A DNA stretch of 64,000 nucleotides from NCBI GenBank assembly GCA_963713975.1, contig OY970218.1, positions 537,451-601,450 on the forward strand, in the 5' to 3' direction. The DNA comes from an uncultured Chloroflexia bacterium (GTDB lineage Bacteria > Chloroflexota > Limnocylindria > Limnocylindrales > CSP1-4). Below, one piece after another: positions 48,250 to 64,000 of the stretch; position 1 is the first letter of the stretch, and each line of letters starts with the position of its first letter. The notes beneath the pieces were generated by a model that did not search any database, was not told the origin of the DNA, and saw only the letters and a list, made by a program, of their open reading frames with translations. Made by a program: the position numbers and the translations under genes.

Positions 48250-49209
48250 TCAGGCGTCATCGTCGAGCGGACCGCCGTAGTCCACGAGCGGCGGGGGAAC
48301 GTCCTCGTCCCGTGGAACGCCGCGCAGTGCGAGCACGCCCCCGACCGCGATCGCAACCGCCCCTACGACCGCGCTCGAGACAAGGGCCTCCCCGAAGACG
48401 ATCGTCCCCACCAGGAACGACCACACCAGGGTCAGGTATCCGAGTGGGGCGAGGTCACTCGCTCGTCCCCACCGGTAGGCAGCCACCAGGAGCCGGTGCC
48501 CCGTCAGTGCGCCCAGCCCGACGATGGCGATACCCACCCACTCGACCGGCGTCGGCGTGGAGTCCGTCGGGATCGAGACCTCGAGGATCGTCGCCGCGAC
48601 GAGCCCGATGACCCCGGACCAGAACACGGTCACGTCGGTCGGATCGGTCCGGAGCGAACGTGTCAGCAGGCTGAAGATCGCGAGCGAGAATGCGCTCGTG
48701 AGGGGGACGAGCACGGCCGTGTCGAGATGCGACGGATCCACGCCCACGAGGACGACAACCCCACCGAACCCGAGCACGGCCCCGCCGATGGCGAACCGGG
48801 TCACCCGCTCCCCGAGGAACGGCCCAGCGAGCGCGATGACGATCAGCGGCGTGGTGGAGCCGAGCGCGCTGACCTCCGCGAGTGGCAGCAGCGACAGGGC
48901 GAGGAAGTAGGTCGCCGTGGCGGCGAACATGGCGAGCCCGCGGGCAAGCTGGGTCCACGGCCGCTTCGTCGCCATGAGGCGTCGCGGTTGCCGCCTGCCG
49001 GCAAACAGCAGCAGGGCCAGTAGGTAGCTGATGTGCCGGCCGAACACGACATGAACGACCGGGATGTCCGCCACGAGCGTCTTCGTCAGTGAATCTGTCG
49101 CAACGAAGACGAGCCCTGCCGATATGAAGATGAGCGCCCCATGGCGGGCCGGGGAGAGCCGGTCCAGGAATGGCTGCCACGGCAGAGCCAGGACCTGGCG
49201 GTCGGGCAT
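48250..49209 (-). CDS. EamA/DMT-family transporter
   Basis: 10-TM pattern with two EamA repeats. The ATG overlaps the upstream stop by 1 nt. Confidence 0.85.
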   Translation of the reverse strand: MPDRQVLALPWQPFLDRLSPARHGALIFISAGLVFVATDSLTKTLVADIPVVHVVFGRHISYLLALLLFAGRRQPRRLMATKRPWTQLARGLAMFAATATYFLALSLLPLAEVSALGSTTPLIVIALAGPFLGERVTRFAIGGAVLGFGGVVVLVGVDPSHLDTAVLVPLTSAFSLAIFSLLTRSLRTDPTDVTVFWSGVIGLVAATILEVSIPTDSTPTPVEWVGIAIVGLGALTGHRLLVAAYRWGRASDLAPLGYLTLVWSFLVGTIVFGEALVSSAVVGAVAIAVGGVLALRGVPRDEDVPPPLVDYGGPLDDDA

Positions 49210-50540
49210 CAGGTCGGGAGGATGTCGGTGAGGTGCCCGGTGGCGTCGAACCCGATCGGTGCGACGGCACCTGCGATCTCGCACGAGCCCGTCGCCACCA
49301 GCTCGGGGAGCAGCGGCTCCGACGCATAGAACCACTCGAGATGCTTCGTATCCATGAGGCGCACGATCCGCGCAGTGTCGGCACGCACCTTGAGGCAACA
49401 CGCGATCGCCACGTCAAGCGCCTGGCGGTCTGTGTCGACGGTCAGGGCGACCCTGGCGCCCTCGGGCGTCTTGGCCGTGACGCAGTTCATGTACGTCTTG
49501 GCGACATCCATGCGGTCCACGGCACGCCGGAGCACGACGTCCGCCATGCCGATCCCGACAGCGTTGCCCTCCGTCGCGTCGGTAAGGTCACGGACGATGA
49601 TCCGCTGGAGCAACGGCGGCCTGCCAGTGGGCCCGGAGTAGTACCGGCCGACGACGTTGGAATCCATGCCCAGCCCGCTGATGTCCTTCCCGATCAAGTC
49701 GAGGATGAGGACGTCCGCTGCACTAACAGGCAGGCGGGCGAGCGAGGCGTCAGCTTCGCGCAGCAGCTCCTGCTCACGGTCCACCATCGCCTCTGCTCGA
49801 ACAGCCTCGATCCGCCGGAGGCGCGCATGGCCGTTCTCGACGAGGGCCACGCCGAAGGGGATGGGGACGCGACTCAAGGTGAAGGTCGCGACAGCGGGGA
49901 TGAGCCGATGGAAGGTCGCGAACCCCTCGCCGTGGAAGGTGTCGGCGCCGCGCTGCTTGCCGAGGCCAATCGCGATCATCTTGAGCAGCCCGCTCTCCAC
50001 CGGGCCGGTGAAGTCCGTATGCGGCTTGACGCGGTTGATGGGAATGATGATGTCGGCGCCCTCGAGGGCCGCGCGATCGACGAACACCGGCACCCGATCC
50101 TCGACCGAGCCGATCTCGACCGTATCCATGCTCGAGCGGATCTCGCAGCCGACCGTGTCCTCGGTGATCCCCAGTGACGCGAGCACGGCGAGCTGTCCTT
50201 CCGCCGTCGCCGCACCGTGGCTCCCCATCGCCGGAACGACGAAGACCTCCAGGTCTCGGGCCCGGAGCGTCGATACGGTTGCCCGCACGACGTCGGCGAT
50301 CCGGTCGATCCCGCGACTGCCGATCGCCAGACACACCCGGCCGGAACGGGGCAGAAGCTCCGCCACCGAATCGACGGCCAGCCCGACCGCCCGGTCAACA
50401 TCCTCGACCGCGGTGGAGTCGATGCGGTGGTGGACGAGCGCCCAGGAAGGCAGACGATGGTGGTGGAATACGGCGAGCGGATCGGCGCGGTCGATCACCC
50501 CGGGCGGGGGCGACGGCGCATCGTCGCGGGCGACATCCAT
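49209..50540 (-). CDS. LarA-like / DUF2088 (lactate-racemase domain) protein
   Basis: 443 aa. AIGSRGIDRIADVV....L......VFVVPAMGSHGAATAEGQ..VL..LGITE..VGCEIRSSM matches my memory of the lactate-racemase-domain family. Confidence 0.65.
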   Translation of the reverse strand: MDVARDDAPSPPPGVIDRADPLAVFHHHRLPSWALVHHRIDSTAVEDVDRAVGLAVDSVAELLPRSGRVCLAIGSRGIDRIADVVRATVSTLRARDLEVFVVPAMGSHGAATAEGQLAVLASLGITEDTVGCEIRSSMDTVEIGSVEDRVPVFVDRAALEGADIIIPINRVKPHTDFTGPVESGLLKMIAIGLGKQRGADTFHGEGFATFHRLIPAVATFTLSRVPIPFGVALVENGHARLRRIEAVRAEAMVDREQELLREADASLARLPVSAADVLILDLIGKDISGLGMDSNVVGRYYSGPTGRPPLLQRIIVRDLTDATEGNAVGIGMADVVLRRAVDRMDVAKTYMNCVTAKTPEGARVALTVDTDRQALDVAIACCLKVRADTARIVRLMDTKHLEWFYASEPLLPELVATGSCEIAGAVAPIGFDATGHLTDILPT

Positions 50541-50551
50541 GATCGTCGCCC

Positions 50552-51328
50552 CTAGATGGTCATCGCGCTGAAGCCGCCATCCACGCGGACGATCGACCCG
50601 GTCACGTAGCCGGAGGCGGCCTCCGATGCCAGCCAGACGGCGGTTCCCACCAACTCGTGCGGCTCGCCCAGGCGCCCGGCCGGTGTGTGCGACATGATCG
50701 CGCGCAACCGGTCCTCGGACAGCAGGGCGCGGTTCTGCTCAGCGGGAAAGAACCCGGGAGCGATCGCATTGACGCGGATCTGATGCGGCGCGAGCTCGCG
50801 AGCGAGGTACTGGGTCAGGTTGTTCAAGCCCGCCTTCGCGACCGAGTACGTGAGAACGCGGGACAAGGGCGGCCCGGACGAGGCGGACGATATGTTGATG
50901 ATCGAGCCACCGTGGCCGTTGGTGATCATGGCCCGGGCGAAGACCTGGCATGCGACCAGCACGGCCGTGAGGTTCACGTCCAGCAGCCGATGCCACTCGT
51001 CCAGCCCGATCTCCAGGAATGGGGTTGCACTGTTCACGCCCGGGGCGTTCACGAGCACGTCGACAGGACCGAGCGTCCCCTCGACCTCCCGGCACGCTGC
51101 CTCCACCTGGATGGGATCCGTCGCATCCACCCGGACGGCCATGGCGCGGGCGCCTTGCGCAAGGAGTGCCTCGACTCGGGCCGCACCCCGCTCCTCGGAT
51201 CGGCCGAGCACTGCGACGGCCGCCCCCGCGTCGGCGAGACCGTGCGCGATGGCCCCACCGAGGACGCCCGTCCCGCCGATCACCGCGGCAACCCGCCCAG
51301 TGAGATCGAACACGCCCGTTGTGGTCAT
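50552..51328 (-). CDS. SDR-family oxidoreductase (gluconate-5-dehydrogenase/KduD-like)
   Basis: Contains the cofactor motif GGTGVLG and the catalytic Y..K (YSVAKAG). Confidence 0.92.
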   Translation of the reverse strand: MTTTGVFDLTGRVAAVIGGTGVLGGAIAHGLADAGAAVAVLGRSEERGAARVEALLAQGARAMAVRVDATDPIQVEAACREVEGTLGPVDVLVNAPGVNSATPFLEIGLDEWHRLLDVNLTAVLVACQVFARAMITNGHGGSIINISSASSGPPLSRVLTYSVAKAGLNNLTQYLARELAPHQIRVNAIAPGFFPAEQNRALLSEDRLRAIMSHTPAGRLGEPHELVGTAVWLASEAASGYVTGSIVRVDGGFSAMTI

Positions 51329-51436
51329 CGGCTTCCATCTCTCCCGTCACTGACCGTGGTCGGAGGTCGGCCAGGTTCCCCGTCGGTTGCGTCTACCACC
51401 CGCCGGTGCGATGTTTGCACACGCGGTGTCCGAGGG

Positions 51437-51453
51437 TCTACTGTAGGACAATC
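51437..51453. promoter_or_regulatory. 17-bp operator-like motif TCTACTGTAGGACAATC (copy 1 of 2)
   Basis: Lies in the SDR/cupin divergent intergenic region. It matches 57555..57571 at 16 of 17 positions and contains a GntR-style GT-N3-AC core (TGTaggACA). Confidence 0.6.
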
Positions 51454-51489
51454 AACCGCGGAACGCGAGCGAATCGAGGGACAGTGGCC

Positions 51490-51957
51490 GTGACCCAGTA
51501 CGTCTTCGATCCCCGTGAGGCCATCCGATACCGGTATCCGACGCACACCAACGACCTGATCATGGATCGTGCCCAGGGGTCCGCGGCCGAAGCGTTCTTC
51601 GTGATCCTCGAACCCGGTGAGGCGCCCCCGATCCACGTCCACCAGGACGCCGAGCAGGTGTTCTTCATCCTCGAGGGCGAGGGCGAGTTGGGGGTCGGGC
51701 CGGGAGCCACCGACAAGCATCCCCTGAAGGTCGGCGACTTCGTGCGGACGCCCCCCGGTGTCCCCCACTCCGTCCGATGCACGGGCCCGAGCCGCTTCGT
51801 GTACCTGAGCATCGACTGCTTCGTCGCCGGGCCCGATCCGGCCGAGCCGACCTGGGACTCCCACGTCCACCAGATGTGCAAGGACAACGGCTGGGATTTC
51901 GATGCCGTGAAGCTGGGCGCCGTCCCCGACGGCTCGGAAGCCCTGAACAAGCGCTGA
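51490..51957 (+). CDS. Cupin-domain protein
   Basis: Contains PPIHVHQDAEQVFFILEGEG......GDFVRTPPGVPHSV. GTG start (51484 or 51490). Confidence 0.8.
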   Translation: MTQYVFDPREAIRYRYPTHTNDLIMDRAQGSAAEAFFVILEPGEAPPIHVHQDAEQVFFILEGEGELGVGPGATDKHPLKVGDFVRTPPGVPHSVRCTGPSRFVYLSIDCFVAGPDPAEPTWDSHVHQMCKDNGWDFDAVKLGAVPDGSEALNKR

Positions 51958-51985
51958 GTCGCGTCCCGGGACCATTGGAGGAGTC

Positions 51986-52309
51986 ATGATCAGGCACTTC
52001 GCCGACCTCACGGTCGCACCGGAGCCCTACGCTGACTACCGGCCCGTGTTCGAGACGAGCCGGCTCAATGTCACGCAGGTCCGGATCCACCCGGGCGCAA
52101 CCGTGCCGAGGCACACCCATCTCGACGAGGACCAGGTCTACTACGTGGCCACGGGGACGGGCTTCGTGCTCCTGGACGGCGAGCGGACGGACGTGACGAC
52201 GGGCAGCAGCGTCCTCATCCCGATGGGCACCGAGCACGAGATCACGAACACGGGAACCGAGCCCCTGGACTACGTGTTCTTCGTGGTGTTCATTCCGGAA
52301 CGGGCATGA
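51986..52309 (+). CDS. Cupin-domain protein
   Basis: Contains VPRHTHLDEDQVYYVATGTG......SSVLIPMGTEHEITN. Confidence 0.88.
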   Translation: MIRHFADLTVAPEPYADYRPVFETSRLNVTQVRIHPGATVPRHTHLDEDQVYYVATGTGFVLLDGERTDVTTGSSVLIPMGTEHEITNTGTEPLDYVFFVVFIPERA

Positions 52310-53073
52310 CCGAATTCCTGCGCGACCGCCTTCGGACGGTTGTCCTCGCGAACCGCGAAGCACTCGGCGCGGAGTCCGCGCGGTATGCGGCCGGTCGCCT
52401 GAAAGCCCTCTTGGAACACCAGGCTCGCGTGCGGGTCATCTTCGCCGCCGCGGCATCCCAGGCCGAGATGCTCGCCGTGCTCGCGAAGGAGCCGGGGATC
52501 GACTGGACACGCGTGGACGCCTTCCATCTCGACGAGTACGTCGGACTCCCGATAGGGCATGAGCGGGCATTCGGCACCTGGCTGCACGAGCACATCTGGT
52601 CCCTGGTGCACCCGGGCCGAGTGGAGCGACTCGACGGCGGCAACCCCGCCGGTGGCGACGCGGAGGCGCTGCGCTACGGCGATCTCCTGGCGGACGGCGG
52701 GATCGATCTCGCGCTCCTCGGGATCGGCGAGAATGGCCACGTCGCCTTCAACGATCCGCACGTCGCAGACTTCGACGACCCGCTGTGGGTCAAGCCCGTC
52801 GAGATCGACGACACGAGTCGGCACCAGCAGGTGCGCGACGGGGCGTTCGACCGGTTCGAGGACGTCCCGCGGGTCGCCCTCACCGTGACCATGTCGACCA
52901 TCCGCGGGTGTCGCGTTGTCGCGCTCGTCGTGCCCGGGCCGCAGAAGGCCATCGCGGTCGCCGCCGCGCTGGACGGCCCGATCTCCGCCGCCTGTCCCGC
53001 GTCCATCCTGCGCGGCCACCCGGACGCCGTGCTGTTCGTGGACGAGTCCGCTGCCTCGCTTGTCAAGTCCTGA
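52306..53073 (+). CDS. Glucosamine-6-phosphate deaminase / 6-phosphogluconolactonase family protein (NagB-like)
   Basis: Contains DAFHLDEYVGL and LLGIGENGHVAFNDP, both NagB-type motifs. Confidence 0.85.
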   Translation: MTEFLRDRLRTVVLANREALGAESARYAAGRLKALLEHQARVRVIFAAAASQAEMLAVLAKEPGIDWTRVDAFHLDEYVGLPIGHERAFGTWLHEHIWSLVHPGRVERLDGGNPAGGDAEALRYGDLLADGGIDLALLGIGENGHVAFNDPHVADFDDPLWVKPVEIDDTSRHQQVRDGAFDRFEDVPRVALTVTMSTIRGCRVVALVVPGPQKAIAVAAALDGPISAACPASILRGHPDAVLFVDESAASLVKS

Positions 53074-53118
53074 CGGCGGCTGACGTCCCGCCCGCCGCAC
53101 GTGCCGAAGGAGCACTCG

Positions 53119-54309
53119 ATGACAACACTCGCCATCAACGGGGGAACCCCGGTCCGAACCAGGCCCTTCGCGGCTTGGCCCGTCTTCGGGCGCGAGGAGG
53201 AGGAAGCGCTGCTGCGCGCTCTCCGATCCGGGGTGTGGGGCTCGATCGACGGCACCTTCGTCAAGGAGCTCGAGATCGAGTTCGCAAAGGTCCAGGGTGC
53301 ACGCCACGGCATCGCGTGCGTCAATGGCACGATGGCGCTGTCGGTTGCGCTCAAGGCGCTGGGCGTCGGTCCTGGTGACGAGGTCATCGTCCCGCCGTAC
53401 ACGTTCATCGCCACGGCCAGCGCGGCGCTCATGATCGGTGCCGTTCCGGTGTTCGTGGACGTCGGTCTGGACACACTTCTCATCGACCCGACCCAGATCG
53501 ATGCTGCCGTGACTGCGCGGACGAAGGCCATCATCCCGGTCCACCACGGCGGATCGCCGGCCGACATGGACGGGGTCATGGCCGCGGCGCGCCGGCACGG
53601 CCTCAAGGTCGTCGAAGACGCCGCCCAGGCGCATGGTGCCGCGTGGCGCGGAACGCCGGTGGGCGCGATCGGTGACGTCGGGACCTTCAGCTTCCAGTCG
53701 TCCAAGCCAGTCAATGCGGGCGAAGGCGGCATGATGGTCACCAACGACGACGAGGCCGACGAGCTCCTGTGGTCCTATCGCAACGTCGGTCGTCGTCGTG
53801 GCGGCGAGTGGTATGAGCACGTCCGGCTCGGCTGGAACCTGCGCCTGTCCGAATTCCAGGCAGCGGTCATCCTGGAACAGTTGAAGCGGATGCCCGCCCA
53901 GCAGGCACACCGCAGCGAAGCTGCCGCGTACCTCTCGAGTCGGCTGCGCGAGATCCCGGGAGCGGTCCCGCTCAACGTGCCCGAGGGCGTCACCGCGCAC
54001 AGTTGGTACACGTATCACTGGCGCTGGCTCGGCGCCGAGCAGGGTGGGCTGCCGAAGAAGGCCTTCGCCGAGGCGCTGCGCGCAGAGGGCGTGCCGGTGT
54101 TTGCGGGCTATGTGCCACTCAACCGGAACCAGGCCGTGATCGACGAGATCGCGCGCCTGGGCGGTCAGGCCCCAGCCGCATGTCCGAACGCGGAACGTGC
54201 CGAGGCTGACGAGATCATGATGTTCTCGCTGTCCATCCTGATGGGCACCCACGAAGACATCGACGACGTCGTCGAGGCGATCGCCAAAGTGGCTGCGGCC
54301 CGGGCATGA
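53119..54309 (+). CDS. DegT/DnrJ/EryC1/StrS-family PLP aminotransferase
   Basis: Shine-Dalgarno GAAGGAG before the ATG at 53119. Contains GDEVIVPPYTFIATA, EDAAQAHGA and FSFQSSKPV (the PLP lysine). Confidence 0.9.
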   Translation: MTTLAINGGTPVRTRPFAAWPVFGREEEEALLRALRSGVWGSIDGTFVKELEIEFAKVQGARHGIACVNGTMALSVALKALGVGPGDEVIVPPYTFIATASAALMIGAVPVFVDVGLDTLLIDPTQIDAAVTARTKAIIPVHHGGSPADMDGVMAAARRHGLKVVEDAAQAHGAAWRGTPVGAIGDVGTFSFQSSKPVNAGEGGMMVTNDDEADELLWSYRNVGRRRGGEWYEHVRLGWNLRLSEFQAAVILEQLKRMPAQQAHRSEAAAYLSSRLREIPGAVPLNVPEGVTAHSWYTYHWRWLGAEQGGLPKKAFAEALRAEGVPVFAGYVPLNRNQAVIDEIARLGGQAPAACPNAERAEADEIMMFSLSILMGTHEDIDDVVEAIAKVAAARA

Positions 54310-55352
54310 CCACCACGCCGTCGATCCGGATCGGGCTCGTCGGCTGCGGTGCGATCTCGACCCAGCACCTCGAGGCGATCGCTGCGGTCGACGGCCTGGC
54401 GCTCGCGGCTGTCACGAGCGCTTCCGTCGACCGGGCACGCGCGGTGGGCGAGCGGTGGGGGGTGCCCTGGTCGATGTCGCTCCACGATCTCCTCGCTCGC
54501 GACGACGTCGACGCGGTGACGATCTGCACGCCATCCGGGCTCCACCCGGAGCAGGCGCTCGCCGCGCTGCGATCGGGTCGTCATGCGATCGTCGAGAAGC
54601 CGATTGCCCTCTCCGTGGAGGAGGCCGAGGCCGTGGTCCGGGAGGGTCACGACCGGGGACTCGCGGTGGCCACGATCTCTCAACGTCGATTCGAGCCTGC
54701 TGTCCGGGCCCTGGAGGCAGCGGTCGCGGCCGGCGCCCTCGGGCGGATCTCGCTGATCATCGCGGAGGGGCTGTACCACCGACCACAGGCGTACTACGAC
54801 AGCGCGGCCTGGCGGGGTACGCGCGAACTCGATGGGGGCGTCCTGATGAACCAGGCAATCCACATGATCGATCTCGTGCGCTGGATCGGCGGGCCGGTCT
54901 CATCCGTCTCGGGGCATGTCGCCACGCTGGGCCACCGGATGGACGCCGAGGACACGGCATCGATCTCCCTGCGGTTCGCCAGCGGAGCGCTGGGAGAGAT
55001 CGTGGCCACGACCTGCGCCACGCCGGAGTTCCCGACCGAGCTCAGGGTCTACGGCGACCGGGGCCACGTCCGCATCGCCGGCGAGCGTGCCGTGGAGTGG
55101 GACGTGCCTGGTGTCGAGGCGCCACGCGATGATGACACTCCGGCACCTGCCGGAACCGCAGGCACACAGACGTGGGGCACGAACGCTGTGGGCTACCTGC
55201 GCCAGTACGGCGACTTCGTCGAGGCCGTCCGTGCCGGTCGCGCCCCCGTCGTCACCGGCGAGGACGGGCGCAATGCCGTGGCGATCGTTGCCGCCGCCTA
55301 TGAGGCGGATCGCAATGGACGAGCAATCGCGCTCGGAGGAGGCCTGCGATGA
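54306..55352 (+). CDS. Gfo/Idh/MocA-family NAD(P) oxidoreductase
   Basis: Rossmann IRIGLVGCGAIS, EKP motif (VEKPIA), and a C-terminal alpha/beta domain. Confidence 0.92.
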   Translation: MTTTPSIRIGLVGCGAISTQHLEAIAAVDGLALAAVTSASVDRARAVGERWGVPWSMSLHDLLARDDVDAVTICTPSGLHPEQALAALRSGRHAIVEKPIALSVEEAEAVVREGHDRGLAVATISQRRFEPAVRALEAAVAAGALGRISLIIAEGLYHRPQAYYDSAAWRGTRELDGGVLMNQAIHMIDLVRWIGGPVSSVSGHVATLGHRMDAEDTASISLRFASGALGEIVATTCATPEFPTELRVYGDRGHVRIAGERAVEWDVPGVEAPRDDDTPAPAGTAGTQTWGTNAVGYLRQYGDFVEAVRAGRAPVVTGEDGRNAVAIVAAAYEADRNGRAIALGGGLR

Positions 55353-56626
55353 AGGTCGGGGCAGCAAAGGTCGACATCACCCCGCCGCTGGGCTACCGGA
55401 TGGACGGGTTCGAGTCGCGCACGAGCGGCGCCACCGGGATCCACGATCCACTCCACGCCCGGGCGCTCGTTGCGGAGGGCGACGACGGGACGACCGTGGC
55501 GCTGATGGTCGCGGACCTGCTGCAGGTGGAGCTGCGGCTCCAGGAGCAGGTCGCCGCGGAGGTCCTGGAGCGGACCGGCATTCCGCGGGATCGCCTCCAG
55601 CTTGCCGGCACGCACACCCACAGCGGACCCGCGCAGCGGGAGCCGTCGGACGTGGAGCGTGCCATCGGCAACCGGATCGCCGACGCCGTGGTGCAAGCGT
55701 GGGACGCGAGGCGCGAAGCGGTTGCCGCGATCGGGATCGGGCACGTTGACGGAATCGCCGGCAACCGTCGGCCGAACGGCGGGCCCGTAGATGATCGTGT
55801 GACGGTGACTCGCTTCGACGGGATCGACGGGGAGCCCATCGCCACCCACGTCAACTACGGCTGCCACGCCACAACCCTTGGACCCAACAACACGCTCTAC
55901 ACCGCGGACTACCCAGGCGTCCTGTGTCGCCTGGTCGACGAGGCTGCGGGCGGGGTGACGATCTTCACGACCGGCCCGCAAGGCGACGTGAACCCAGGGG
56001 GCTACTCCCCCGAGGGAAGCATGGTCGGGGTCGTCGTGCCGTGGCGGACATTCGAGTCCGCCGAGCGTTACGGGCACATCCTGGCCGATTGCACGCTCGC
56101 GATCCGGGAGAGCCTCACACCCGCGTCCTCCTCCCGGGTGTGGGGAACCTCCCGGATCGTCGAGCTCCTGCGCAAGCGTCTGCCGGATCCCGTCGTCGCG
56201 CGGCGTGCAGCCACCCTCGCCCGTGACGCGGAGCGGGCCGTCTCAGCGGCGGACCTCACCGCGGACGCTACCTACCATGCGCTCGTTGCCGCGGCGTACG
56301 CGGAACTGGTTGCGGAGCAGGCCGAGGCCCCGGATCGCGACGGCCCGGTACGGGTGCGGGCGAGTGCGCTCGCCCTGGGGCCGCTGCTGCACCTTGGAGT
56401 GTCCGGCGAGCTGTTCGTTGCCCTGGGCCAGGAAGCGCGGCAGGCGCTCGGTGCGGACAGCACGTGTATCGCCGCATTGTGCGACGGCACGGTGGGCTAC
56501 ATCCCGACAGCCGAGGCATTCGAGATTGGAGCCTACGAGCCGAACGCAAGCGTCCTGCAGCCAGGAGAAGGGGAGCGCCTGATCCGGGCGCTGATCGAGC
56601 TTGCCTCGGCGGCACCGCCCGCCTGA
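55349..56626 (+). CDS. Neutral/alkaline ceramidase-like amidohydrolase family protein
   Basis: MKVGAAKVDITPPLGYRMDGF........GIHDPLHARALV......AGTHTHSGP resembles the neutral-ceramidase N-terminal domain. Confidence 0.65.
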   Translation: MKVGAAKVDITPPLGYRMDGFESRTSGATGIHDPLHARALVAEGDDGTTVALMVADLLQVELRLQEQVAAEVLERTGIPRDRLQLAGTHTHSGPAQREPSDVERAIGNRIADAVVQAWDARREAVAAIGIGHVDGIAGNRRPNGGPVDDRVTVTRFDGIDGEPIATHVNYGCHATTLGPNNTLYTADYPGVLCRLVDEAAGGVTIFTTGPQGDVNPGGYSPEGSMVGVVVPWRTFESAERYGHILADCTLAIRESLTPASSSRVWGTSRIVELLRKRLPDPVVARRAATLARDAERAVSAADLTADATYHALVAAAYAELVAEQAEAPDRDGPVRVRASALALGPLLHLGVSGELFVALGQEARQALGADSTCIAALCDGTVGYIPTAEAFEIGAYEPNASVLQPGEGERLIRALIELASAAPPA

Positions 56627-56689
56627 AGAGCTCCACCATCGAGGCCACGTGATCCGTCCACCTGCGTTCCGCCATTCGGGAGACATCAG

Positions 56690-57448
56690 ATGACCGCCCC
56701 GATCCACGCCACCTACCTCGACCGGGCCATGGAGCTGCTCGCGCGTATCCGCGATGAGGAGGGTGAAGCGATCGCGCGAGCCGGCTTGGCCGTCGCGGAT
56801 CGCATCGCCGAAGACCGCCTCATCTATGTGATCGGGCCCGGCGGCCATTCGCAAATCGGTGCGGAGGAGGTCTTCTCGCGCGCTGGCGGCCTGGCCTGCA
56901 TCTGGTCGTTTCTCGACGACGGCTTCTACCTGGGTCACGGCGCCGCGCGGTCGATGGCCATCGAGCGCACGCCGGGCTACGCGCGCGCCATCCTGGATGG
57001 TGCGGGAATGAGCGACGGCGACATCCTGTTCATCGTCAACGCGTACGGCATCAACTCGGCGACGATCGACAGCGCGATGTATGCCCGCGAGAAGGGGCTG
57101 ACCAGCATCGCGGTCACCTCGGTCGCCAACCAGCGCGGTCTGCCACAGGGTCACCCGAGCCGCCACCCGAGCGGACAGGACCTGTGTGACCTTGCCAACA
57201 TCGTCGTGGACACGAAGATGCCCTTGGGCGACGCGGTCATGGCCGTGGATGGCGTCACCGAGAAGGTCGGCCCCGTCTCGACGATGGTCAACGCCTACGC
57301 GATCAACTCGATCATGCTGGAGGCAATCGCCGACCTCGCCCGTCGGGGGATCGAGCCGCCGGTCTGGCGGAGCTCGAACAGCCCTGGTGGGGATGAGGCG
57401 AACCTCGCCGTGACCGCGCGGTATCGGCATCGCGTCCCGAACTTGTGA
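56690..57448 (+). CDS. SIS-domain sugar isomerase-like protein (UPF0309 type)
   Basis: Contains IYVIGPGGHSQ and DILFIVNAYGINS..ID.A..ARE.G...IAVTS. Confidence 0.8.
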   Translation: MTAPIHATYLDRAMELLARIRDEEGEAIARAGLAVADRIAEDRLIYVIGPGGHSQIGAEEVFSRAGGLACIWSFLDDGFYLGHGAARSMAIERTPGYARAILDGAGMSDGDILFIVNAYGINSATIDSAMYAREKGLTSIAVTSVANQRGLPQGHPSRHPSGQDLCDLANIVVDTKMPLGDAVMAVDGVTEKVGPVSTMVNAYAINSIMLEAIADLARRGIEPPVWRSSNSPGGDEANLAVTARYRHRVPNL

Positions 57449-57554
57449 GGCCCGGGTTACGACCGCAGCAGGCATCGGCGACAATGACCGTGATTCCCAA
57501 CCGGGCAACCGTGCCTGCCGGCCGGAAGGGCCTTGCGTCCGGGATGTCCGATGA

Positions 57555-57571
57555 TCTACTGTCGGACAATC
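57555..57571. promoter_or_regulatory. 17-bp operator-like motif TCTACTGTCGGACAATC (copy 2 of 2)
   Basis: Ends 27 nt upstream of the ATG at 57598 of the FadR-type GntR gene. Matches 51437..51453 at 16 of 17 positions. Confidence 0.6.
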
Positions 57572-57597
57572 TCGTGCAGGAGGGGTCGGTCCGAGCC

Positions 57598-58380
57598 ATG
57601 AGCCTTCATCGTCCCCAGACACTAACGACTGTCGTCGCGCAGTTCATCAGGGACGCGATCGTCCACGGTGAGTTCGCGCCGGGATCGCGGCTCCCTGAGG
57701 TGGCGCTTGCGGCCCAGCTCGAGACCTCGCGCGGGACCGTCCGGGAGGCCCTCCGGACGCTTGCCGACGGCGGGCTCATCCAGATCATCCCCCGCCGGGG
57801 CGTGTTCGTCTCCCAGCTCTCGGTACGCGCGACCTGGGAGATCACGAGCCTGCGTGCTCTCCTGGAGCCCTACGCCTCACGACTGGCGCTGGAGGCAAGC
57901 GGCGCCGATCCGGCCATCGAGCGTGAGGTCCGGGCGGCATTCGAGGTCCTCAGGAAGGCCGTGCGTAGCAGGGATCCGCTGACGGTCGCCGACGCGGACG
58001 TCGCGTTCCACCGCTCGGTCTTCGCCCGTTGCGGACACGAGATGCTGCTCGGCCGGCTCGATACCTTGCAGGCGTTGTCGCGCCGGATCGTGCTGACCAA
58101 CCAGATCGCCTCAGCCGATGCGCCAACCCTGATCGCCCAGCACGCCCCGATCGTCGAGGCTGTCCAGCTCCGTGACCCGGAGCTCCTGGAGGCTGCGGTC
58201 CGCGCCCATGTGATCGAGGCCGGTGAGCTGCTCATGACACGGATGGCCGCACTGGAACCGAACCGAGCGAAGCGCCCGCAGGCGACCACATTCGGGCTCG
58301 GCCGCTGGCCGTCGGGGGCGAGCCCGCATCCAAGACGATCGAACATGCAGACCGGGCTCGGTTCCGACAATGGAGAGTAG
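57598..58380 (+). CDS. GntR-family regulator, FadR/FCD subfamily
   Basis: RLPEVALAAQLETSRGTVREALRTLADGGLIQIIPRRGVFV, plus a helical FCD domain. Alternative starts are 57544 and 57445. Confidence 0.88.
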   Translation: MSLHRPQTLTTVVAQFIRDAIVHGEFAPGSRLPEVALAAQLETSRGTVREALRTLADGGLIQIIPRRGVFVSQLSVRATWEITSLRALLEPYASRLALEASGADPAIEREVRAAFEVLRKAVRSRDPLTVADADVAFHRSVFARCGHEMLLGRLDTLQALSRRIVLTNQIASADAPTLIAQHAPIVEAVQLRDPELLEAAVRAHVIEAGELLMTRMAALEPNRAKRPQATTFGLGRWPSGASPHPRRSNMQTGLGSDNGE

Positions 58381-58589
58381 GAAGTCATCACACATCGGCT
58401 GGCCCGCCAGGCCGCGCGGGAGAGGTGACGCGGAGACCCGCGCGGCCGCTGTGGGCCATTTCCGGGGAGTCCGGCCCTCGTGGAAGCCGGCTCCAATATC
58501 CGAGCATCTGCCACGGAGCAAGGGAGACGAACGCCTCTGAGAGTGCTGGCTCCGCGTCATCGATCGTCATCCGAACCTGGAGGAGGAAC

Positions 58590-59975
58590 ATGGCAAGCTC
58601 TCGGCTACTGACCAAGGCAATCGTGCTGTCCGCGGGACTCGCGATCGCATTTGCAGCCTGCGGCTCGAGCTCGGCGACCACCGCGCCGGCCACCCAGGCC
58701 GCCGGCGCCACAACGGCCCCGGTCGAATCTGCCGCCACCGCTGACGCGTGCGGGACCGATCCCGTCACGCTGAACGTATGGGGAGGCTATCCCGAGGTCG
58801 ACGACGTCTACAAGCAGGCCGGCGCAGCCTTCAAGGAGGCACATCCCAACGTTGACTTCACGGTCTTCAGCACCGACCTCCGCGGCTTCGAGCAGAAGCT
58901 GACCACCGCGCTCCCCTCCAAGACGGCAGGCGACGTCGTCGTCCGGACGACGAACTTCCTCGCCCGCTTCATCGATGAAGGCCTGCTCCAGCCGGTCCCC
59001 GACGACCTGAAGGGCGAGATCACCGGAGGTGGCTACGCGCCCGAAGTCGTCCAGGACAACACCTACTCCGACAACATCTGGGGCATGCCGCTGTTCACCG
59101 GCGGAACGGCCGTCTACTACAACACCGACATGTACACGGAAGCGGGCCTCTCCGGTCCCCCGATGACGATGGACGATCTCAAGTCCAACGCATACAAGCT
59201 GGCCAAGACGGACGCGAACGGCAACCTGACCCGGTCGGGCTGGAGCCTCCGGCTGTCAGGTCAGGGCAGTGGCGTTGCAGAGAAGTTCTGGATCCTCCTG
59301 CTCCAGGACGGCAAGACACTCATCCGCGAGACCCCGGAGGGGTCCGGCAACTGGGTTGCCGAGTACAACGGCCCGGAGGGCGCGAAGCTCCTCCAGATGT
59401 ACGTCGATATGCTGAAGGACAACGTCCTGTCCTTGGAGATCGATGGTGATGCCAAGGCGTTCGAGACCGAGCAGACCGCGCAGTTCCTGCGCGAGTCCTG
59501 GGTGGTCCCCGAGATCGCCGCGACGGTCCCGGATCTGGTCGGCCACTACGCGACCGTGGCACCGCCTGCTGCGGACATCCTGACGGTCGAATCAATGTTC
59601 GTGCCGGACGCATCGCCGAACGCCGCCTGCGCGTGGGAGTTCATCCGATTCATGCGCGAACAGGACCAGCAGATCAACCTGCTGAAGGTGTCCGGCTGGC
59701 TGCCGGCCCGCGGCGACCTCGACCTGGCCGCCTTCCTGGCGGAGAACCCGACCTACGAAGGCTTCCTCAAGCGGCCGGACGGCTTCCAGCTGACGACCAC
59801 ACCGCCGATCGCCGAGTTCGACGAGATCGAGACCAAGCTCGCGACGCACCTGGTCGAGGCCTACGCCGACTTTGCCAACCTTGCCGGGCAGCCCGACAAG
59901 ATCCAGGCCCTGCTCAACACCTGGGCCGATGAGACCAACCAGATCCTGAAGGACAACGGCCACTTCGGCGGCTGA
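58590..59975 (+). CDS. ABC sugar transporter substrate-binding lipoprotein
   Basis: The Shine-Dalgarno GGAGGAGG precedes the ATG at 58590. The lipobox is FAACGSS. The sequence looks like a family 1 SBP. Confidence 0.9.
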   Translation: MASSRLLTKAIVLSAGLAIAFAACGSSSATTAPATQAAGATTAPVESAATADACGTDPVTLNVWGGYPEVDDVYKQAGAAFKEAHPNVDFTVFSTDLRGFEQKLTTALPSKTAGDVVVRTTNFLARFIDEGLLQPVPDDLKGEITGGGYAPEVVQDNTYSDNIWGMPLFTGGTAVYYNTDMYTEAGLSGPPMTMDDLKSNAYKLAKTDANGNLTRSGWSLRLSGQGSGVAEKFWILLLQDGKTLIRETPEGSGNWVAEYNGPEGAKLLQMYVDMLKDNVLSLEIDGDAKAFETEQTAQFLRESWVVPEIAATVPDLVGHYATVAPPAADILTVESMFVPDASPNAACAWEFIRFMREQDQQINLLKVSGWLPARGDLDLAAFLAENPTYEGFLKRPDGFQLTTTPPIAEFDEIETKLATHLVEAYADFANLAGQPDKIQALLNTWADETNQILKDNGHFGG

Positions 59976-60059
59976 TCCAAGTAGCATTGTGGGCGCCGAC
60001 GGCACGGGCCGCGGCGCCCACGCGCATCCCCGGCACCCGATCCAGGAAGGGTCGATGGA

Positions 60060-60980
60060 TTGAACAGTCCCTTGGCAGCCGTGCGCAACATCCCGAGGCG
60101 GCGGTGGGTCCGCTACCGCTTCGTGCTCATCGTGCTCGCGCCCGTGATGGCGCTGTTCTTCTACCTGCGCGTCATCCCGACCGGGCAGGCGATGCTGATG
60201 AGCCTGTTCGACTGGGAGCTCATCAAGCCTGCCGAGAAGTTCGTCGGGCTCGACAACTATGTGAACCTGCTGTCCGACGACAACTTCAGGCTGGCGTTCA
60301 CGAACACGACCATCTTTGCCGTGGCGACCACCGTGTTCTCGGTGCTGATCGCCCTGTTGCTCGCCGCATTGCTGTCACGGTTCGTGACCGGCCGGCTCGG
60401 CGGCTTCCTCGAGCTGTTGTACTTCGCCCCGGTGCTCGTGCCGATGGTGCCGGTCACGCTCGGGTGGCGCGAGATCTTCAACTACCAGCACGGGATCCTG
60501 AACTCGGCGCTTGAGGTCTTCGGGATCGGCAAGCAGCCGTGGCTCAGTGACCCCACGATGGCTCTCGTCGCGGTCGTGATCCTGTCGGTCTGGAAACAGG
60601 TCGGGTACAACATGATCATCCTGCTGGTGGGGATGCGGGCAATCCCGGTGATCTACCACGAGGCGGCAGCCGTTGACGGTGCGAACGCGTGGCAGCAGTT
60701 TCGGCGGATCACACTGCCCCTGCTGGCGCCCGTCACGCTGTTTGTGGTCGTGATCACGACCATCTCGGCGTACAACGTGTTCACCCAGGTCTACGTGCTG
60801 GCGTCCGATGTCCAGGGGGCACCCGGCCGTCTCGTGCGCGTGCTCGTGTACGACATCTTCGAGAACGGGTTCAGGTTCTTCAATATGGGCTACGCAGCGG
60901 CAGAGGCCATGTACCTGTTCATCATCATCCTCGCCCTGACGATCATCCAGTTCCGGTTCCTGCGGGGGTCCAACCCGTGA
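60060..60980 (+). CDS. ABC sugar transporter permease (MalF-like)
   Basis: 6 TM segments. Contains the EAA loop EAAAVDGANAWQQFRRITLP. Confidence 0.9.
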   Translation: MNSPLAAVRNIPRRRWVRYRFVLIVLAPVMALFFYLRVIPTGQAMLMSLFDWELIKPAEKFVGLDNYVNLLSDDNFRLAFTNTTIFAVATTVFSVLIALLLAALLSRFVTGRLGGFLELLYFAPVLVPMVPVTLGWREIFNYQHGILNSALEVFGIGKQPWLSDPTMALVAVVILSVWKQVGYNMIILLVGMRAIPVIYHEAAAVDGANAWQQFRRITLPLLAPVTLFVVVITTISAYNVFTQVYVLASDVQGAPGRLVRVLVYDIFENGFRFFNMGYAAAEAMYLFIIILALTIIQFRFLRGSNP

Positions 60981-61822
60981 TCTCATCTCGGCGCACGCTC
61001 GTCGGCAAGATCTCGTACTGGATCGTCGTCGCCCTGCTGTTCGCTGGCGGCCTGCTCATGGTGTTCCCGCTGTTCTGGTTGTTCAGCACATCGTTCCGTC
61101 CGGCAACTGAGCTGCTCAAGGTGCCACCGTCGCTGCTCCCCGAGGTTTGGACGATCGCGAATTTCGAGAAGGTCTTCGCGACGGCCCCCGTGATGTCGTA
61201 CCTGTGGAACAGCGTCGTGTTCGCCGTCATCTCCACGGTGTTCATCCTCGTGACGTCGACGATGGCGGGCTACATCTTCGCGAAGTTCAAGTTCCCCGGG
61301 AACAACGTCCTGTTCATGCTCGTGATCGCGACGGCGATCGTGCCGTTCGAGATCTACATGGTCCCGCTGTTCCTCCAGATGAACACCCTGGGCCTCGTGA
61401 ACACGCCGATCGGCCTGTTCCTGCCGTTCCTCGTGCTCAGCTACGGGATCTTCTTCATGCGTCAGAACACGATCACGAGCGTGCCCGACGAGCTCCTCGA
61501 CGCCGCCCGTATCGACGGCATGGGTGAGTTCTCCATCATGCTCAGGCTCGTACCCAGGCTGCTGGCGCCGGCGATGGCCGCACTTGCGATCCTCGCCTTC
61601 ATCCAGGCATGGACCGCGTTCATCTGGCCGCTGCTCATCCTCAACGAGCCGAAATACTTCCCGATGGAGCTCGGGCTGTCGCAGTTCGCGAACAGCACCC
61701 GGGTCGACTTCGGCGCGGTCGCGGCAGCGGCCGTCTTCGCGATGCTGCCGACCCTCCTCGCGTTCCTGATCCTGCGGCGCCGGATCGTCGAGGGCATCAC
61801 GCTCACGGGGCTCAAGGGCTGA
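60977..61822 (+). CDS. ABC sugar transporter permease (MalG-like)
   Basis: The GTG overlaps the previous stop. Contains the EAA loop DAARIDGMGEFSIMLRLVPRL. Confidence 0.9.
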   Translation: MISSRRTLVGKISYWIVVALLFAGGLLMVFPLFWLFSTSFRPATELLKVPPSLLPEVWTIANFEKVFATAPVMSYLWNSVVFAVISTVFILVTSTMAGYIFAKFKFPGNNVLFMLVIATAIVPFEIYMVPLFLQMNTLGLVNTPIGLFLPFLVLSYGIFFMRQNTITSVPDELLDAARIDGMGEFSIMLRLVPRLLAPAMAALAILAFIQAWTAFIWPLLILNEPKYFPMELGLSQFANSTRVDFGAVAAAAVFAMLPTLLAFLILRRRIVEGITLTGLKG

Positions 61823-61850
61823 CCGCGAACCCCCGGAAAGGCCTCATTCA

Positions 61851-63068
61851 ATGACATCGATGCTGACCACACACGTGGACCCGTCCGACGCGCCTGCCGG
61901 GCTCTCGCTGCTGGGTCGATCAACGGAGGACGGGGGGGCCGTCCGGGTGACGGTGGCGGGCGGCCTTGTCACCAGGATCGAGCGCGTCGCGGAAGACCCG
62001 GGTGGCACCTGGATCTCCCCGGGCTGGATCGACATCCAGATCAACGGCTATGCCGGGCACGACCCGAATGACGCAGCTGCGGACGCATCAACCTCCGCGG
62101 CCATGGTCCGCGCCCTGTGGCCCGAGGGGATCACCGGATCGTGCATCACGATCTGCACTGAGTCCGAGGAGCACATCAAGGACAACCTTCGCGCCATCGT
62201 GGCGGCCTGCGATGCCGACCCGATCATCGCTGAGTCCGTGGTCGGGATCCACGTGGAGGGCCCACACATCGCGACCGAGGACGGGCCGCGCGGGGCCCAC
62301 CCGCTGCGCCACGTGCGCCCGCCGGATATCGCGGAGTACCGGCGGTGGCAGGAGGCCGCCAACGGCCGGGTCCGGATCACCACGCTCTCGCCCGAGTACG
62401 AGGGAGCAGCCCCCTACATCCGGGCAGTCGCCGCCGACGGCGTCCTGGTCTCGATCGGGCACACCACGGCGACGGGTGACCAGATCCGGGCTGCCGTCGA
62501 TGCCGGGGCCAGGTGGTCGACCCACCTTGGGAACGGCGCCCATGCCGTGATCCGGCGCCACCCTAACTACATCTGGGACCAGCTTGCCGAGGACCGGTTG
62601 AGTGCGGGCTTCATCTTCGACGGCCACCACCTGCCGCCCGCGGTCATGAAGACCGTCCTGCGCGCCAAGGGCGTCGAACGCACCGTCCTCGTCAGCGATG
62701 CGGTCTCGATGGCCGGCCTGCCACCCGGACGCTACACGCTGTTCGACGGTGGCGATGTGGAGCTGCAGCCCGACGGCCGCCTGGAGCTGGTCGGGACGCC
62801 GCTTCTCGCGGGAGCTGTCACGGCCCTTCCAACGTGCGTCGCGAATGCGGTCCGCCATGCCGGGGCGACACTGTCTGACGCGGTGCGGATGGTGACCGCG
62901 AACCCTTCCCGCCTGCTCGGCCTGCCGATCACGGCCGGCCACGAGAGCCTTCGGACCGGCGTCGCCGCCAACCTGACGATGTTCCGCCGAGCCGAGACCA
63001 CTGGTGCTATCGAGATCGTCAGGACAATTGTTGGCGGGACGGTGGTGTTCGAGTCGCCGGCCCGTTGA
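61851..63068 (+). CDS. N-acetylglucosamine-6-phosphate deacetylase-like amidohydrolase (NagA family)
   Basis: Contains the NagA-type motifs SPGWIDIQINGYAGHD, IHVEGPHI, SIGHTTAT and THLGNG. Confidence 0.82.
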   Translation: MTSMLTTHVDPSDAPAGLSLLGRSTEDGGAVRVTVAGGLVTRIERVAEDPGGTWISPGWIDIQINGYAGHDPNDAAADASTSAAMVRALWPEGITGSCITICTESEEHIKDNLRAIVAACDADPIIAESVVGIHVEGPHIATEDGPRGAHPLRHVRPPDIAEYRRWQEAANGRVRITTLSPEYEGAAPYIRAVAADGVLVSIGHTTATGDQIRAAVDAGARWSTHLGNGAHAVIRRHPNYIWDQLAEDRLSAGFIFDGHHLPPAVMKTVLRAKGVERTVLVSDAVSMAGLPPGRYTLFDGGDVELQPDGRLELVGTPLLAGAVTALPTCVANAVRHAGATLSDAVRMVTANPSRLLGLPITAGHESLRTGVAANLTMFRRAETTGAIEIVRTIVGGTVVFESPAR

Positions 63069-63109
63069 CCCCGGCGATCCCGGACCCCTTCTGTTCGACG
63101 TCTCGCACG

Positions 63110-64000
63110 TCAGCGCTGGATGCGCGCCGATCCGCCGGCGGCGAGCGCGCGGACCTGCTGCTCGGTCGCCATGGTGGTATCGCCCGGGAAGGTCGTGAGG
63201 AGCGCGCCCTGGGCCCAGCCGAGCCTCACTGCCTCGGCGGGGGTCTCGCCGGCCAGCAGCCCGTAGATGAACCCCGACGCGAAGCCGTCACCACCTCCGA
63301 CGCGATCGTAGACGTCGAGCTCGCAGGTTGGGGCCACGACGCTGTCGCCCCCGATCCACGCGACCGCACTCCAGCCGTGGCGCGAAGCGGAGTGAACCTC
63401 ACGAAGGGTCGTTGCGACGATCCTGAGTCGGGGATACTGCTCCGCCACGCGGTTCATGACGTCCAGGAAGGCTGCCGGATCCAAGGCGTCCCGGGATCGT
63501 ACCTCCGGACCCTCGATCCCGAGCCCTGCCTGCACGTCCTCCTCGTTGCCGACCAGGACGTCCACGTGCTCGACGATCCGCCCGAGCACATCGCGCGCGC
63601 GATCCTCGCCACCGAAGGCGCGCCACAGCTTGGCGCGGAAGTTGAGATCGAACGACACGATCGCGCCGGCGGCCCTCGCCGCCTGCATCGCCTCGATGAT
63701 CAACTCCGGCGTGGTGGGCGAGAGTGCGGCGAAGATGCCGCCACTGTGGAACCAGCGGACTCCGGCACCAAAGATGGTCGCCCAGTCGAAGTCGCCCGGC
63801 GCAAGCCGTGCGGCGGCCTCGTTGGCGCGGTTGTAGAAGACGACGGGAGCGCGCATCCCGAAACCCCGGTCGCTGTACACCGACGCGATGTTGGGCCCGG
63901 TGACGCCATCGTGATCGAAGTGACGGTAGATCCCGGTGACACCCATCGAGCGGACACTCTGGGCAACGTGGTCACCGATCGGGTAGTCCACCATCGCGGT
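63110..64000 (-). CDS. PfkB-family sugar kinase, 2-dehydro-3-deoxygluconokinase (KdgK)-like; the N-terminus probably lies beyond the window end
   Basis: Contains VYDRVGGGDGFASGFIYGLL (the PfkB signature) and FDLNFR. The usual 50 or so N-terminal residues are missing before the first in-window Met. Confidence 0.85.
   Translation of the reverse strand, partial: TAMVDYPIGDHVAQSVRSMGVTGIYRHFDHDGVTGPNIASVYSDRGFGMRAPVVFYNRANEAAARLAPGDFDWATIFGAGVRWFHSGGIFAALSPTTPELIIEAMQAARAAGAIVSFDLNFRAKLWRAFGGEDRARDVLGRIVEHVDVLVGNEEDVQAGLGIEGPEVRSRDALDPAAFLDVMNRVAEQYPRLRIVATTLREVHSASRHGWSAVAWIGGDSVVAPTCELDVYDRVGGGDGFASGFIYGLLAGETPAEAVRLGWAQGALLTTFPGDTTMATEQQVRALAAGGSARIQR

Follow-up and report, generated by a model that had tools for sequence, protein, structure and literature searches.

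Sugars such as GlcNAc3NAcA and ManNAc3NAcA are found on cell surfaces and are products of the Wbp/Wlb pathway. Among the LarA homologs, gluconate 2-epimerases form groups 19 and 20, to which group 22 is related. Group 22 is listed with "unknown function", and its gene neighborhoods include an SDR (45%), an IlvD/Edd-type dehydratase (30%) and a glucuronate isomerase (20%). Among enzymes of amino sugar breakdown, NagA requires an anionic 6-group and is inactive without one (PMC6016474), and NagS eliminates the 3-OH (PMC12680351).

We analyzed a gene island in a soil Chloroflexota genome (Limnocylindria), located at 48250-64000 of a 64,000-nucleotide window (the whole stretch of DNA studied). Most likely, an acidic, non-phosphorylated N-acetylated amino sugar is imported and degraded by a route that appears to be undescribed.

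Gene content and regulation

Genes were called as GC3-filtered ORFs and then profiled with Pfam and NCBIfam. All of the gene families named in the original prediction were found (Table 1). Start codons were revised to later sites for EamA (49209), cupin 1 (51490), GntR (57598), the substrate-binding protein (58590) and permease 2 (60977). Partial translational coupling, as originally proposed, is confirmed by overlaps of 1 or 4 nt at five gene junctions: ATGA for cupin 2/NagB-like, DegT/Gfo and Gfo/Cer-like, GTGA for the two permeases, and TGATG at the LarA stop and EamA start. The PfkB kinase gene is convergent with the plus-strand genes, and beyond 64000 the island runs on with a conserved protein of ~550 aa.

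Table 1. Genes and predicted operators of the island (positions in the window).
Feature	Position	Strand	Basis and remarks
EamA/DMT-family membrane transporter	48250..49209	-	319 aa from revised ATG; PF00892, 80 bits
LarA homolog, group 22	49209..50540	-	NF052515, 469.9 bits (cut-off 400)
SDR oxidoreductase	50552..51328	-	PRK08277, 260.9 bits (cut-off 281)
Predicted operator 1	51427..51450	+	TGTCCGAGGGTCTACTGTAGGACA; repeat D5; position kept in orthologous loci
Cupin 1	51490..51957	+	155 aa; first plus-operon gene; PF07883, 62.6 bits
Cupin 2	51986..52309	+	107 aa; HxH...D/E...H; PF07883, 63.7 bits; PF01050, 36 bits
NagB-like deaminase/isomerase paralog	52306..53073	+	PF01182; TIGR00502, 110 bits (cut-off 237)
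DegT/DnrJ/EryC1-family PLP aminotransferase	53101..54309	+	PF01041, 337 bits
Gfo/Idh/MocA dehydrogenase	54306..55352	+	PDB 3q2k, 1.9e-61; 3q2i, 2.4e-56
Short neutral-ceramidase-like (Cer-like) amidase	55349..56626	+	425 aa; PF04734, residues 2-95 only
SIS_2/UPF0309 protein, NagS-like	56690..57448	+	PDB 9eol, 1.5e-41; 40.5% identity to SCO4393
Predicted operator 2	57545..57568	+	TGTCCGATGATCTACTGTCGGACA; upstream of gntR
FadR-type GntR regulator	57598..58380	+	260 aa from revised ATG; PF00392 + PF07729
CUT1-family ABC substrate-binding lipoprotein	58590..59975	+	461 aa; PF13416/PF01547
ABC permease 1, UgpA/MalF type	60060..60980	+	PF00528; NCBIfam UgpA-like
ABC permease 2, UgpE/MalG type	60977..61822	+	PF00528
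NagA-like amidohydrolase paralog	61851..63068	+	Amidohydro_1; TIGR00221, 202.5 bits (cut-off 225.65)
PfkB kinase, resembles 2-keto-3-deoxygluconate (KDG) kinases	63110..64000	-	PF00294; 5' end past window

The regulator motif that had been claimed is real. Repeat family D5 occurs at 51415-51453 and 57533-57571, and its 14-mer core (TCTACTGTNGGACA) has exactly 2 copies in 64 kb, versus 0.01 expected by chance. The predicted operator is a 24-bp palindrome, and both positions are kept in about 25 orthologous loci of related genomes. The SDR and cupin 1 genes diverge from a 161-bp control region that contains operator 1, and the revised GntR start is placed 3' of operator 2. Because the second operator is upstream of gntR, we count three transcription units, not the two divergent units first described. 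The common, phylogenetically footprinted operator supports the view that the genes form one GntR-controlled regulon. In other lineages, a LacI regulator takes the place of GntR.

Conservation across genomes

The island is intact in 29 long loci despite differing flanks, which differ even in a 92%-identical relative. All island-bearing members are uncultured MAGs or metagenomes. Core genes occur together in 26-29 of the 29 loci (NagB-like in 29; SDR in 28, and in type I as well as type II variants), and this conservation supports the proposal of one functional block. EamA, the last gene of the minus operon, is present in 21/29 and is replaced by an ANKH-like or MFS membrane protein in other lineages. 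A Bacillota MAG (L034) and loci L025, L029, L031 and L035 have the same gene content in a different order. Both amidases (Cer-like and NagA-like), the NagB-like protein and the SDR are found in every cluster type and, together with the transporter, make up the invariant core. Fusions of the Cer-like protein with NagB-like (P0129/P0130) or cupin 1 (P0132), as well as the start/stop overlaps, argue for functional coupling.

Amidases, NagB-like and SIS proteins

The Cer-like protein is the catalytic domain alone (AF2 model pLDDT 80, pTM 0.85). Foldseek matched it to neutral ceramidases only (4wgk at 8e-22, TM-score 0.72 by query length; 2zws, 2zxc). Its invariant residues are HxH, R, H, E, Y and Y, and it is probably Zn-dependent. 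Its orthologs form a narrow group in a family that is large, with 487 clusters at 50% identity (E<=1e-30). The NagA-like protein is of the mononuclear QxN type (PDB NagA matches at 5e-40) and retains the anion-binding Asn/Arg, with a THLGNGAHAxI(R/K)RHPNY motif conserved in 9 sequences.

Equivalents of D72, H143 and K208 are invariant in 13 NagB-like sequences from all cluster types; the TGGT phosphate loop is AAA(A/P) in 13/13, and R172 is replaced by Gln in 12/13. The SIS protein retains catalytic H53, R64, E94, D179 and N228, with S91 replaced by Met. Its phosphate-binding Ser119/Ser121 are Asn/Tyr in 7/7 orthologs, a loss of two of three phosphate-binding serines (residue roles after PMC12680351). 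The proteins first described as NagA/NagB/SIS belong to divergent subfamilies that score below curated cut-offs, two of them with remodelled phosphate sites. This suggests that the substrate is probably not a sugar phosphate. The Asn/Arg site of the NagA-like protein, along with the need of NagA for an anionic 6-group, argues for a substrate that is still anionic.

DegT, dehydrogenase and cupins

The catalytic Lys of the DegT protein sits in FSFQSSKPVNAGEGG. The protein scores under every NCBIfam equivalog cut-off, and its PDB matches include AHBA synthase (9e-68), inosose aminotransferases and WbpE (9e-58). The Gfo protein has two strong PDB matches (3q2k and 3q2i), after which values drop to 2.8e-31. 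These are named "oxidoreductase" and "dehydrogenase" in the PDB table, and we take them to be WlbA. The protein thus seems closest to WlbA/WbpB, the UDP-GlcNAcA 3-dehydrogenase.

Across nine distinct loci from outside Limnocylindria, SIS and DegT+Gfo never occur together, as expected of alternative solutions to one step, and homology suggests that both act at C3. Limnocylindria carry both, which is odd if they are strictly redundant. The dehydrogenase/DegT pair, originally placed at the center of the pathway, is an accessory module, as it is missing from four related loci that have SIS (L042, L084, L085, L086).

Cupin 1 has an HxH...E...H metal motif, a GTG start and a GAGGGA ribosome-binding site; its AF2 model is confident in the barrel core only. 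Cupin 2 has weak likeness to type II phosphomannose isomerase cupins and KdgF, and its PDB matches are generic small cupins (KdgF 5fq0 at only E 4e-4).

SDR, LarA homolog, transporter and kinase

The best family for the SDR, below cut-off, is the SDR-type D-mannonate oxidoreductase (fructuronate reductase), followed by gluconate 5-dehydrogenase (201 bits) and KduD (179 bits). The LarA homolog is assigned by its profile match ("nickel pincer cofactor-dependent isomerase, group 22") to the nickel-pincer-nucleotide-dependent 2-hydroxy-acid racemase/epimerase superfamily. It shares 42% identity with Rxyl_2987, which belongs to group 22 (PMC7583248 supplement), and retains the SRG, GSHG, KPHTD, LLKM and +16 His motifs; a PDB sequence search with it gave no match.

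The substrate-binding protein has a GGAGGAGG ribosome-binding site and an ...AFAAC lipobox, and its PDB relatives are uninformative. A gene for the ATPase was not found within the island. A full-length kinase ortholog (L001:17705-18787, 360 aa) matches the KDG-kinase part of NF041633 (249 bits), KDG/KDGal kinase (139) and IolC (102), all under cut-offs. In L044 the kinase shares an operon with cupin-cupin-SDR.

Proposed pathway

We consider it highly probable that the island is a single catabolic regulon under GntR control, with three units, for CUT1 uptake and breakdown of a non-phosphorylated N-acylated amino sugar. More tentatively, the substrates could be N-acetyl-hexosaminuronic acids, probably 2,3-diacetamido forms, with breakdown passing through fructuronate and mannonate and ending at gluconate/6-phosphogluconate or KDG. 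The best fit would be 2,3-diacetamido-2,3-dideoxy-hexuronic acids (GlcNAc3NAcA/ManNAc3NAcA); the simpler GlcNAcA and ManNAcA may be further substrates. Pointers to uronates and hexonates are the nearest structures of the Gfo protein, which act on UDP-GlcNAcA, the SDR resemblance to D-mannonate oxidoreductase, the LarA group 22 neighbors and the gluconate 2-epimerases of groups 19/20, the KDG-kinase-like kinase and 6-phosphogluconate dehydrogenase (6PGDH).

We infer all steps from family resemblance and gene context. The binding protein and two permeases would import the substrate, using an ATPase encoded elsewhere, and a cupin (in other lineages an AGE-like protein) would interconvert manno and gluco forms. 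The Cer-like amidase would remove one N-acetyl group and the NagA-like protein the other; assigning the Cer-like protein to the 3-N-acetyl group is arbitrary because type I loci have two amidases without the WlbA/WbpE-like pair. DegT would then transaminate the C3 amine to a 3-keto group and the WlbA-like dehydrogenase reduce the ketone, the biosynthetic pair running in reverse. Alternatively, the NagS/MurQ-like SIS protein may take off the C3 amine by C2 deprotonation and beta-elimination. Deamination and isomerization by the NagB-like protein would convert the 2-amino uronate to D-fructuronate, which the SDR would reduce to D-mannonate, and the LarA homolog may epimerize C2 to give gluconate. 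The PfkB kinase would phosphorylate the acid, and carbon would exit as 6-phosphogluconate, or KDG/KDPG. No kinase or PTS was found ahead of the amino-sugar steps, which again speaks against a sugar phosphate as substrate. A ROK kinase gene, which counts against this reading, is present 23 kb upstream of the island.

The exit is not necessarily KDG, as first suggested, because in L031 and L086, which represent two independent cluster types, the SDR gene is followed by one for an NAD-dependent 6PGDH that scores over the curated cut-off. A 2-keto-3-deoxy product rather than fructuronate is a better fit to L019, where translational coupling joins the kinase gene to a second NagB-like gene. Also against the proposed pathway, genes for a glucuronate isomerase, a mannonate dehydratase and a KDPG aldolase were not found within the island. 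AHBA synthase and inosose aminotransferases slightly outrank WbpE among the DegT matches, which counts against hexosaminuronic acids; the aminocyclitol (inosamine-type) substrate suggested earlier is disfavored by the always-present NagB-like protein, in which the residues that catalyze aldose-ketose deamination of a 2-amino-2-deoxy aldose are conserved.

Comparison with described pathways

Literature searches found no published pathway that matches gene-for-gene, and none of the Cer-like, NagB-like, DegT, Gfo and cupin proteins has an equivalog in NCBIfam (June 2026). The original prediction is borne out for the regulon, the conserved block, the transporter-linked catabolic architecture and the lack of a published match, but not for the central role of the pair or the aminocyclitol. 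Breakdown of an acidic, non-phosphorylated N-acetylated amino sugar, as proposed here, would provide a testable role for several enzyme families that lack an assigned function. Compared with classical NagB, the NagB-like protein retains the catalytic residues and has a remodelled phosphate site; a 6-carboxylate may serve for anchoring in the role of the 6-phosphate of the classical pathway.

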